Assembly: GCA_964016885.1 (NCBI GenBank)
Contig: OZ024740.1
Location: forward strand, 268,894,001 to 268,958,000
DNA from: Eledone cirrhosa
Taxonomy: Eukaryota
Length of the DNA: 64,000 nucleotides
Direction: 5' to 3'
The position numbers were made by a program, and so were the translations under genes. The notes beneath the pieces were generated by a model, which was given only the letters and a program-made list of their open reading frames with translations, did no database searches and was not told where the DNA came from. Of the stretch, positions 36,494-47,330 are shown piece after piece (within the stretch, counting starts at the first letter, position 1; the number at the start of each line of letters is the position of its first letter).

Positions 36494-36538
36494 AGCTGAC
36501 AGAGCTCTGTTTCGTACTTTTTGGTACTTATCAAAGCT
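36494..36538 (-). ncRNA. Type I hammerhead ribozyme core, intact copy
   Basis: Minus strand AGCU UUGAUAA GUAC CAAAAA GUAC GAAAC AGAGCUCU GUC AGCU. About 14 further variants at ~31214, 31534, 31854, 32175, 32690, 33010, 33336, 33852, 34171, 34492, 35009, 35328, 35658 and 36172. Confidence 0.9.
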
Positions 36539-37654
36539 AAGTACTCCACCTGTTTGCTGACAATCATGAATGTTTGATTCTTATAGAATTCTAGTAATAA
36601 TCGGGAACTGATTATACAGAGCGGTTGCCGGTCAAGCAGAAATTGAAAATTAGAATTGTTGCTCTTAATTAAAAGCAATACCTGCCCTGTTTGCTGAAAA
36701 TTGAAAGTAAGTGTGACTGTCACTACTCTAAAACAATAGCGTAAGGTCTTCTAAATACTTTTAATCAATGCTTTTTAATACAGTGTATTGCAAAATACAC
36801 TATATATACATTCATATATATATCGCTATTTCAGAGCACCAATTCTAATTTTTAATTTCTGCTTGACCGGCAACCGCTCTGTATAATCAGTTCCTGATTA
36901 TTTCTAGAATTCTATTAGAATCAAACATTCATGATTTTCATCAAACAATCGGAGTACTTAGCTTTGATAAGTACGAAAAAAGTACGAAACAGAGCCTCTG
37001 TCAGCTTTATCTGCCCTGTTTGCTGCAAATTTAAAGTGAGACTGTCACTACTCTAAAACTATAGCGTAAGGTCTTCGAAATGCTTTTTATTAATCAAACA
37101 GTGTATTGCAAAATACACTGTATATACATTCATATATATATCGCTATTTCAGAGCACCAATTCTAATTATATATATATACTAGCAGATTTACCCGGCGTA
37201 GCTCTGCGTTTGAAATTATGCTAAGAATATACAGCTAGGAAGTAAAAGAAGAACATTATTTGTCCCCAACCTGTCAAAATAAGCAGAAGTCTTCAATAAT
37301 TAATGCAAACAAATATTTAGTGCAATCTTTGTACACATAAAACTATTTCTGATAATGAAGGAAAACACTGAACAGGATGTAGTTATATAAAATATAAAGA
37401 CGTTGCAAATCTGTAAAAAAAACAGGCAGTTTTGCTAAATTACAAAAAGTTGTAATGAAAGCAGAGTTGTATACAAACAAAAAAGCAATGAGAGTAGAAT
37501 AAGAGAAAATCTATTTTTTGAGAGCATCCTTTGCTGTGTATGGTTAATTTTTTAACTTATAATCTAAAATATCCTGCATGACATCTTCATTGGTATGTTT
37601 TGTAATGAGTAAGGTGAAGTCAAGGCAGAGCTGTAATAAGTTTTTTTGTTAACA

Positions 37655-44355: not shown

Positions 44356-44540
44356 CAACGATAACATCCCAAGGAATGCAAATCGCGGAGTGCATATTTA
44401 CATCTATTTATTATATTATTCTGCAGATATTCCACCATAGATAATCAATACATAATTATGTAATAAACAAATGTACATATAAAACCGTCTCTCTTCATCA
44501 TAATATATATATATATATATATATATATATATATATATAT

Positions 44541-47330
44541 AAAATACATTATGAAGAGAGAAGAAACATTTAGATATAATTAGTAATAAAATGTATCATA
44601 CCTAAACTGTTCCTAAATTCCTCGACTACGTAGTTTCGTGGCATAAACAAAAACAATATATCAAAGATATAGAGTCCTTGCGAGGTCTGCCGACTTATCA
44701 AGAGGATACCTCATTTTACTAGTCTCAAGAACGCGTCTACACGACGTGAGAAAGAATCCCAAAAGGCGGAGGGGGAGATAGTCACGCGATATAACGGTCG
44801 AGAAACAGAGCTAAGCCTCTTATAACCACGAAGAAAATACCACGGAGGCGGAGGGGGTATTCATATCGAGGCCGTAGAAGAGGTAGTGAAGAAGGCGAGA
44901 AGTATGAGTAATGGAAGCTTTCCAGTTGTCCCCACACTTCAAAGATTGCTCGACCAGAGGGAGTTATTAATATATTTAGAAACACACAGATACATGCGGA
45001 CACACACATATATACATGAATGCATCCGCACCCAACTGTTAGTTAAGGGTGCCAACTTCACCGATGTTGCTCAATGAATGACTGGGACAGACCAATTCAG
45101 TTTGAACCAGACTGAACCAGTATCAGAGTTAAAAATACATTATGAAGAGAGAAGAAACATTTATATATAATTAGTAATAAAATGTATCATACCTAAACTG
45201 TTCCTAAATTCCTCGACTACGTAGTTTCGTGGCATAAATAAAACAATATATCAAAGATATAGAGTCCTTGCGAGGTCTGCCGACTTATCAAGAGGATACC
45301 TCATTTTACTAGTCTCAAGAACGCGTCTACACGACGTGAGAAAGAATCCCAAAAGGCGGAGGGGGAGATAGTCACGCGATATAACGGTCGAGAAACAGAG
45401 CTAAGCCTCTTATAACCACGAAGAAAATACCACGGAGGCGGAGGGGGTATTCATATCGAGGCCGTAGAAGAGGTAGTGAAGAAGGCGAGAAGTATGAGTA
45501 ATGGAAGCTTTCCAGTTGTCCCCACACTTCAAAGATTGCTCGACCAGAGGGAGTTATTAATATATTTAGAAACACACAGATACATGCGGACACACACATA
45601 TATACATGAATGCATCCGCACCCAACTGTGAGTTAAGGGTGCCAACTTCACCGATGTTGCTCAATGAATGACTGGGACAGACCAATTCAGTTTGAACCAG
45701 ACTGAACCAGTATCAGAGTTAAAAATACATTATGAAGAGAGAAGAAACATTTAGATATAATTAGTAATAAAATGTATCATACCTAAACTGTTCCTAAATT
45801 CCTCGACTACGTAGTTTCGTGGCATAAATAAAACAATATATCAAAGATATAGAGTCCTATATCTTTGATATATTGTTTTTGTTTATGCCACGAAACTACG
45901 TAGTCGAGGAATTTAGGAACAGTTTAGGTATGATACATTTTATTACTAATTATATCTAAATGTTTCTTCTCTCTTCATAATGTATTTTTAACTCTGATAC
46001 TGGTTCAGTCTGGTTCAAACTGAATTGGTCTGTCCCAGTCATTCATTGAGCAACATCGGTGAAGTTGGCACCCTTAACTCACAGTTGGGTGCGGATGCAT
46101 TCATGTATATATGTGTGTGTCCGCATGTATCTGTGTGTTTCTAAATATATTAATAACTCCCTCTGGTCGAGCAATCTTTGAAGTGTGGGGACAACTGGAA
46201 AGCTTCCATTACTCATACTTCTCGCCTTCTTCACTACCTCTTCTACGGCCTCGATATGAATACCCCCTCCGCCTCCGTGGTATTTTCTTCGTGGTTATAA
46301 GAGGCTTAGCTCTGTTTCTCGACCGTTATATCGCGTGACTATCTCCCCCTCCGCCTTTTGGGATTCTTTCTCACGTCGTGTAGACGCGTTCTTGAGACTA
46401 GTAAAATGAGGTATCCTCTTGATAAGTCGGCAGACCTCGCAAGGACTCTATATCTTTGATATATTGTTTTTGTTTATGCCACGAAACTACGTAGTCGAGG
46501 AATTTAGGAACAGTTTAGGTATGATACATTTTATTACTAATTATATCTAAATGTTTCTTCTCTCTTCATAATGTATTTTTAACTCTGATACTGGTTCAGT
46601 CTGGTTCAAACTGAATTGGTCTGTCCCAGTCATTCATTGAGCAACATCGGTGAAGTTGGCACCCTTAACTCACAGTTGGGTGCGGATGCATTCATGTATA
46701 TATGTGTGTGTCCGCATGTATCTGTGTGTTTCTAAATATATTAATAACTCCCTCTGGTCGAGCAATCTTTGAAGTGTGGGGACAACTGGAAAGCTTCCAT
46801 TACTCATACTTCTCGCCTACTTCACTACCTCTTCTACGGCCTCGATATGAATACCCCCTCCGCCTCCGTGGTATTTTCTTCGTGGTTATAAGAGGCTTAG
46901 CTCTGTTTCTCGACCGTTATATCGCGTGACTATCTCCCCCTCCGCCTTTTGGGATTCTTTCTCACGTCGTGTAGACGCGTTCTTGAGACTAGTAAAATGA
47001 GGTATCCTCTTGATAAGTCGGCAGACCTCGCAAGGACTCTATATCTATGATATATTGTTTTATTTATGCCACGAAACTACGTAGTCGAGGAATTTAGGAA
47101 CAGTTTAGGTATGATACATTTTATTACTAATTATATCTAAATGTTTCTTCTCTCTTCATAATGTATTTTTAACTCTGATACTGGTTCAGTCTGGTTCAAA
47201 CTGAATTGGTCTGTCCCAGTCATTCATTGAGCAACATCGGTGAAGTTAGCACCCTTAACTCACAGTTGGGTGCGGATGCATTCATGTATATATGTGTGTG
47301 TCCGCATGTATCTGTGTGTTTCTAAATATA
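44541..47330. repeat. 590 bp tandem repeats arranged as a large palindrome, hammerhead in each full unit
   Basis: Units start at 44541, 45132 and 45722; inversion centre GATATAG-AGTC-CTATATC at ~45855; ~2.5 reverse units follow; (TA)n on both flanks; copies nearly identical. Confidence 0.96.
46414..46501 (+). ncRNA. Type I minimal hammerhead ribozyme (U3-A8 core, long loop II)
   Basis: UCCUC UUGAUAA GU(C)GGCA...UGCCAC GAAAC UACGUA GUC GAGGA. Other copies at 47005-47091 (+), 44619-44706 (-) and 45210-45296 (-). Confidence 0.82.

Follow-up and report, generated by a model that had tools for sequence, protein, structure and literature searches.

The U3-A8 hammerhead core in two candidate retrozyme families of Eledone cirrhosa and across its genome

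Hammerhead ribozymes in which the tertiary core pair C3-G8 is replaced by U3-A8, i.e. UUGAUAA instead of CUGAUGA, have been described before. Natural covariation of this kind was first reported, as several examples, by Perreault et al. 2011, where activity of U3-A8 in vitro is cited to Przybilski and Hammann 2007 (PMC3088659), and Cervera and de la Pena 2014 described about 1,300 U3-A8 motifs in Schistosoma Penelope-like elements (PLEs), with a supplement placing a U3-A8 motif of S. mansoni beside a similar C3-G8 motif of S. japonicum (PMC4209133). Here we analyse a stretch of 64,000 nt from Eledone cirrhosa (OZ024740.1, 268,894,001-268,958,000; hereafter the window) together with the 3.0-Gb genome, and describe two non-coding tandem repeat families, named here F320 and F590 after their 320-bp and 590-bp repeats, in which each unit holds one type I hammerhead motif with a U3-A8 core. 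Their sequence organisation suggests that both are likely self-cutting retrozymes, probably copied by a PLE into (TA)n. This is a known variant in further members of a known element class, and the swap itself is not new.

The closest described systems are the animal retrozymes lacking long terminal repeats (LTRs; PMC7229834; 10.64898/2026.07.22.740005), which are likewise non-coding tandem arrays, hold a single type I hammerhead per unit, are predicted to form strongly self-paired circles, have a dimer-type stem III and are linked to PLEs. F320 and F590 differ from these by their core, U3-A8 being a term not found in the main text of the 2020 paper (PMC7229834), by the long palindromic stem III of 10-12 nt and, in F590, by a 57-nt stem II domain; the F590 unit exceeds the 150-450 bp of PMC7229834 and fits the 51-972 bp of 10.64898/2026.07.22.740005. 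The same core covariation is found in the minimal hammerheads of the Schistosoma mansoni Cercyon PLE, located there in the PLE termini and mostly as single minimal motifs (PMC4209133), whereas in Eledone it also occurs in canonical-looking tandem retrozymes, in tens of thousands of copies and in two PLE clades. Compared to the several examples of PMC3088659, U3-A8 is a major class in this one genome. Endonuclease-encoding (EN+) PLEs of the Neptune/Nematis (CX2-5CxxC linker) and Hydra (CxCX5C linker) types share with F320 and F590 the (TA)n targets, the inverted 5'-truncated arm and the one-ended tail, and have terminal hammerheads (PMC8557442), but F320 and F590 encode no protein. Craig et al. 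2021 describe half cores 35-50 nt apart in Naiads, and their core-only search string, cuganga, excludes U3-A8 (PMC8557442). Our literature search, outside of which key subscription papers lay, returned no paper on a genome in which U3-A8 rivals the standard core, nor on U3-A8 tandem retrozymes.

Two arrays with one U3-A8 hammerhead per unit

The F320 array and the hammerheads defining its anatomy are located in the window as follows.

29,251-37,168, both strands: F320 array with 19 hammerheads, composed of a plus arm (29,251-30,431), a long minus arm (30,969-36,671) and an inverted plus arm (36,679-37,168)
36,494-36,538, minus strand: F320 type I hammerhead with stem I AGCU/AGCU, core U3 (36,534) UGAU A8 A9 and GUC site
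36,960-37,006, plus strand: F320 hammerhead of the inverted arm, U3 at 36,964, loop II and stem III each longer by one base

Units were located with a core-independent anchor. UUGAUAA is present in 15 of the 19 F320 units and CUGAUGA in none, the other four being single decayed copies with one change each (UAGAUAA, AUGAUAA, UUGGUAA, UUGAUAU). The motif consists of a proximal stem I of 4 bp followed by an internal loop and a 16-bp distal helix, a 4-bp stem II closed by a 6-nt loop, a stem III formed by a 12-nt palindrome and a GUC site; position 36,494 is the 3' end of stem I in one copy. Loop II has the conserved sequence CAANNA and the extended helix I holds the internal loop, an arrangement that may permit a tertiary contact between loops I and II and that resembles the Schistosoma motif. 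The copies within the window are not independent of each other, and the array has a higher-order period of three units (mean identity 0.937 at lag 3 vs 0.914 at lag 1), so that part of its length arose by DNA duplication. Genome-wide, an exact F320 24-mer occurs 672 times (control 0).

The F590 features are the following.

44,541-47,331, both strands: F590 insertion in (TA)n with four whole and two half hammerhead units
44,541-45,858, minus strand: F590 arm, stopping 83 nt past the cut site
45,857-47,331, plus strand: F590 arm, stopping 245 nt past the cut site
44,619-44,706, minus strand: F590 hammerhead, UUGAUAA, U3 at 44,701
45,210-45,296, minus strand: F590 hammerhead, UUGAUAA, U3 at 45,291
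45,805-45,905: F590 inversion point, within the stem II domain, leaving two half hammerheads that retain GAAA, stem III and the cut site but lack the UUGAUAA strand
46,414-46,501, plus strand: F590 type I hammerhead, U3 at 46,419, GAAA at 46,483, GUC site with C17 at 46,496
46,426-46,482, plus strand: F590 stem II domain of 57 nt, with the G10.1-C11.1 base, one bulged C and a 4-bp helix
47,005-47,091, plus strand: F590 hammerhead, UUGAUAA, U3 at 47,010

All four whole units carry UUGAUAA, in a frame of a 5-bp stem I (its 3' end at 46,501 in one copy), a stem II domain of 56-57 nt, a stem III formed by a 10-nt palindrome and a GUC site. An insert of about 43 nt, a predicted hairpin, occupies the place of loop II. 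The window copies are 99.2-99.8% identical and are not independent of each other; an F590 23-mer at one mismatch or fewer gives 8,408 genome matches (control 0). The 5' strand of F590 stem I (46,408-46,418) can also pair with the bases just upstream as a 4-bp hairpin, which would block the active fold and may constitute a switch. DNA resembling F590 was seen at high depth in one of three sequencing runs of unknown kind, which says nothing on expression.

A preliminary description of this DNA had stated that the two families share the UUGAUAA core and have no obvious flanking sequence in common. Both statements hold, as F320 and F590 units align only in microsatellite-like and chance words. The remaining consensus core (U4 G5 A6 N7/A9, G12 A13 A14, A15.1-U16.1, H17) is present in both families.

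Insertion anatomy, covariation and folding

Counting insertion ends by hand, we found the outer 3' ends of both families being confined to two positions each relative to the cut site: 40 of 42 F590 ends in 24 regions lie at +80-83 or +245-253 and 52 of 59 F320 ends at +128-145 or +169-177. With few exceptions these ends merge into (TA)n, which makes target-site duplications longer than 4 bp unreadable, and the arms are commonly head to head. Neither array contains an open frame of at least 120 amino acids, and no match to a PLE protein was found within the F320 and F590 arrays of the window. In PLE insertions, as described in PMC8557442, one arm is inverted and truncated and a tail is present on one side; the anatomy of F320 and F590 matches this pattern in the (TA)n target, the inverted truncated arm and the one-ended tail. 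A short inverted-repeat element in the window (44,090-44,370 and 44,480-44,502) ends in a CT-rich run, CATAAT and then (TA)n, like the short end of F590, a resemblance in sequence that hints at a common priming signal.

That these are ordinary satellites spread by DNA duplication, matching a hammerhead by chance, could be argued from the higher-order period of the long F320 array and from Rfam scores under the cut-off. Short dispersed arrays with fixed ends and inverted arms, together with a 15-fold genome-wide excess of U3-A8 over its control and the covariation of F320 described below, speak against it; we count the satellite reading as refuted by the anatomy and consider it extremely improbable.

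The retrozyme reading suggests the following route. In a read-through transcript of adjoining units two palindromic stems III would pair, generating a double hammerhead that would cut after GUC and thereby release unit-length RNA able to circularise. Of two fixed AU-rich sites lying downstream of the cut, a PLE enzyme would use one for priming on (TA)n DNA; as it copied round the template, the units would be laid down in tandem, with an inverted arm truncated at its 5' end and a tail on one side. U3-A8 would have been fixed in the founder of each family and then inherited, with selection acting on the founders that spread and inserted copies decaying.

For F320, covariation was assessed on the 54 copies, out of 72 anchored, that stayed in register and on a separate set of 12 copies hand-picked to span the subfamilies. 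In these 12 copies 98.3% of cells across the F320 superfamily are paired, and six pairs are changed on both sides, distributed across stems I, II and III; the covariation score is 0.249 compared to 0.161 in shuffles and at most 0.088 when the structure is slid, and neither the cell count nor the score was reached by any of 500 shuffles. Pair 10.2-11.2 varies among the 54 copies, 42 having U-A and 11 C-G. Stems of the F320 subfamilies are thus changed on both sides, yet the subfamilies agree in U3-A8, the GUC site and all remaining catalytic positions. In an F590 subfamily of 81.6% overall identity a 32-nt block over stem I, the core and the base of stem II is identical, other F590 blocks such as the +41-80 end being as well preserved; the stem II insert varies without clear covariation. 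The three type I helices with an open helix I are accordingly backed by covariation in F320, and in F590 the helices are present with little variation.

The predicted double hammerhead is more stable than two monomer folds by 12.7 kcal/mol for F590 and 16.4 kcal/mol for F320 and lies within 4.4 and 1.0 kcal/mol, respectively, of the free minimum. Circular monomers are predicted to be far more stable than their shuffles (30 each), with z scores of -7.9 for the ribozyme strand and -1.1 for the opposite strand of F590, and of -3.7 to -5.6 for F320.

The Rfam search of the window is not informative, with three F320 copies matching HH9 at about 24.5 bits (cut-off 52) and F590 yielding no match. With the Rfam covariance models one U3-A8 subfamily scores 30.4 bits and a C3-G8 family 31.8 bits, both under the cut-off, and it is therefore not the swap that hides these families from covariance searches. 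The earlier expectation that canonical-motif searches miss such ribozymes is correct for literal CUGAUGA descriptors; covariance models treat both cores alike.

The 3-8 pair across the genome and in autonomous elements

We searched the genome with the pattern core-N(8-24)-CGAAAC-N(2-8)-GTC, each count being paired with a reversed-pattern control and some sites being counted twice where two GTC fit. U3-A8 gave 8,572 matches (control 572) and C3-G8 8,617 (163), whereas the half-swapped cores gave 335 (253) for U3-G8 and 381 (209) for C3-A8. Position 3-8 is kept as a Watson-Crick pair genome-wide with single-change cores near background, the outcome on which the preliminary description had staked its case. 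Patterns requiring CGAAAC miss several families of both core kinds, e.g. the C3-G8 motif of the L139 family, and the true ratio of U3-A8 to C3-G8 is therefore not fixed by these counts; F590 itself falls outside the pattern, and its 3' half adds the 8,408 matches mentioned above to the U3-A8 families. A GUA-ended pattern with a longer stem II gave 35,400 matches (control 4,428). The first 100 listed of these, from the first 19 Mb of the window's contig, comprise 81 U3-A8, 16 C3-G8, two C3-A8 and one U3-G8, and in 23 of the 81 U3-A8 cases the pattern fitted F590 within stem III. In the patterns used here U3-A8 is at least as frequent as C3-G8.

Among the first 100 listed rows of each half-swapped search, inspected by eye, the hammerhead-like rows are mostly scattered mutants of double-state families, and no half-swapped family was found apart from two exceptions, one local tandem run derived from an indel and one unrelated satellite. 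Copies lacking U3 are similarly scattered single mutants, all retaining A8: 12 in F590 (six C, four G, two A) and 18 in F320 (seven C, five G, six A). A C3-G8 sister was found genome-wide in none of the 12 F590 and none of the 18 F320 copies, and the swap is therefore older than each family. One apparent C3-G8 member of the F320 cluster was recovered neither by the core-independent anchor nor genome-wide and was taken as an unrelated neighbour motif.

Autonomous PLEs were collected by a GIY-YIG search in which 150 of 10,596 candidates were scored and 64 rows examined. A U3-A8 motif lies downstream of the PLE frame in four families, N1 (7/10), N2 (4/5, its near full-length copy being L126), N3 (15/20 distinct loci) and N4 (11/13), which group in a single starred clade and have a CX4CxxC linker; the adjoining N5 has C3-G8 in 8/10. 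A further U3-A8 family with the Hydra-clade linker (CxCX5C) has 1,477 exact matches, with the frame upstream in 15 of 30 loci. The PLE tree was evaluated by parsimony counts and bootstrap shares only; it is unrooted and has 29 rows, 16-19 of them unlabelled, with five short or broken families left out, so that gain is indistinguishable from loss. With ten labelled families, two of the C3-G8 labels being single-copy, two changes are needed, forced by starred branches and with one change sufficing in 0% of the bootstrap trees, and adding three single-copy Hydra-type labels raises the number to three. As reconstructed from these sequences, autonomous PLEs have switched between C-G and U-A at least two to three times, with U3-A8 in two distant clades. 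It is on this repeated switching that the case for a conserved pairing, rather than for conserved bases, actually rests.

The positions of three PLE motifs are as follows.

N4 motif with GCAA for GAAA (L189, L194, L204, L207, L217, L227, L231, L234, L250): downstream of the endonuclease frame by about 750-1,480 nt
L127 motif, minus strand: 400 nt after the frame ending at 5,828
L161 motif, minus strand: 828 nt after the frame ending at 6,128

L127 and L161 are single copies of sister Hydra-type PLEs with stem II of 72 and 83 nt, respectively, and a common stem III, one having U3-A8 and the other C3-G8, so that the two may represent a direct natural swap. The terminal hammerhead of N1 (GUA site, 13-nt stem II; L176-L178, L211-L237) accounts for about 50 of the first 100 listed GUA-pattern rows, suggesting well over ten thousand copies, and is probably the commonest U3-A8 motif in the genome. 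PLE frames beside F590 or F320 (L142, L010, L139, L147) were rejected as parents, being separated by microsatellites or located at varying distances, as in nested insertions.

From the double change in two families the preliminary description had concluded on selection for catalysis. The part of this that stands is the pair kept genome-wide and the covarying stems of F320; two independent swaps do not follow, as no C3-G8 sister and no parent element was found for either family. An origin of both U3-A8 cores from one common ancestor, e.g. one PLE terminus, as a single event and not by convergence would explain the missing sisters, and both families have GUC, G10.1-C11.1 and a long palindromic stem III. 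Moreover, the inheritance of U3-A8 by four autonomous families within one starred clade indicates that dissimilar hammerheads can inherit the swap. Against this, nothing is alignable between F320 and F590, which differ in the architecture of stem II, in unit length and in the length of the tail (26 vs 165 nt), and at least two to three switches are required elsewhere in the same genome. We regard a common ancestor as a doubtful but serious possibility; it concerns origin only and is compatible with the retrozyme explanation.

Several observations weaken the case for selection on catalysis or weigh against F320 and F590 being self-cutting retrozymes. Two families are not two demonstrated swap events, shared descent being possible, and the rarity of half-swapped copies partly reflects inheritance from few masters, families being the proper unit. 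No PLE terminus was alignable to F320 or F590 among the 23 elements compared, which are a fraction of the genome's PLE families. The number of doubly changed F320 pairs taken alone was matched by 51 of 500 shuffles, on rows chosen by us, and the covariation of F590 is thin, consisting of one wobble change in stem I. Minimum-energy folds of single motifs miss the hammerhead, with pair probabilities of stems I and III about zero in most contexts. In published work, minimal PLE hammerheads cleave poorly or slowly in vitro (PMC4209133), and eight of nine Xenopus retrozyme dimers gave no cleavage (10.64898/2026.07.22.740005). Finally, N4 combines U3-A8 with A13C, which all 11 readable copies carry. 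A13 belongs to the hammerhead consensus core (PMC7151607), and N4 may therefore be spreading with a damaged ribozyme; the change is either a dead ribozyme on a successful element or a tolerated variant.

Alternatively, U3-A8 could be a founder effect of no present catalytic value, with the motif decayed or surviving as a structural relic (a protein-binding or priming signal) and the double change fixed through AT-biased mutation in a few masters. The spread of N4 regardless of its fixed A13C, monomer folds avoiding the active shape, the window GC content of 36.5% and the nature of both substitutions (C to T and G to A) as transitions are in line with this, as are PLE clades that spread well without canonical hammerheads (PMC8557442). 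AT bias alone should, however, leave half-swapped families, of which, the indel-derived run and the unrelated satellite aside, none was seen in the rows inspected, and F320 subfamilies whose stems differ still have the GUC site and every other catalytic position in common. We therefore judge the founder effect unlikely and retain the interpretation of F320 and F590 as PLE-copied retrozymes.

Neighbouring elements and significance

Other features of the window are listed here.

37,180-42,460, minus strand: Helitron with Rep and Pif1 helicase fragments and a hairpin plus CTAG 3' end, between F320 and F590 and part of neither
43,409-43,960, inverted pair: third, unrelated hammerhead-like repeat with canonical C3-G8 core and a 90-nt rod-like stem II, C3 at 43,551 (minus) and 43,818 (plus)

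A second Helitron-like 3' end (hairpin plus CTAG) lies just beyond the Helitron at 42,650-42,680 on the plus strand. The third hammerhead-like family, found again at about 11,545-11,693, has a stem I of only 1-2 pairs and has a 13-base word in common with the opposite strand of F320, probably by chance. Two further C3-G8 hammerhead families in the window match PLE termini, one at 59,564 (minus) and 59,686 (plus) that of the Hydra-type PLE L249, the other at 12,505 (minus) that of the L139 PLE family. Broken frames of non-LTR retrotransposons (by eye resembling reverse transcriptase and AP endonuclease) are located at 17,896-19,880, 21,872-24,460 and 26,827-27,786. Elsewhere in the genome, at least six type I hammerhead families with C3-G8, stem II of 50-62 nt and mostly GUA sites were noted (L161, L162, L168-L175), and a 469-bp tandem retrozyme with canonical core forms arrays of up to 15 or more units (L064-L078, L084-L090). 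Long stem II motifs (50-90 nt) are present in the genome with both cores.

Extending the comparison to the lineage, we tentatively propose a model, plausible to us although not the favoured expectation, according to which most hammerheads now have the U3-A8 core and this core arose independently on three or more occasions, namely in PLEs of the Neptune/Nematis type, in PLEs of the Hydra type and in free retrozymes, the dimeric double hammerhead buffering the half-swapped intermediate. In the same model F590 would represent an active architecture in which a domain of 45-90 nt replaces loop II, which occurs with both cores and is missed by standard descriptors.

The interest of these findings lies in scale, repeated switching and odd architectures rather than in the swap itself. 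Our data suggest that about half of the hammerheads in a genome may escape a census based on CUGANGA and a short stem II. The family with fixed A13C and the families with very long stem II provide two test cases for the role of the hammerhead in PLEs, and the genome supplies natural U3-A8 dimer substrates. For the C3-G8 tertiary pair it amounts to a natural experiment of large size, in which many families together comprise thousands of copies with one or the other paired state and mismatched copies are almost absent.

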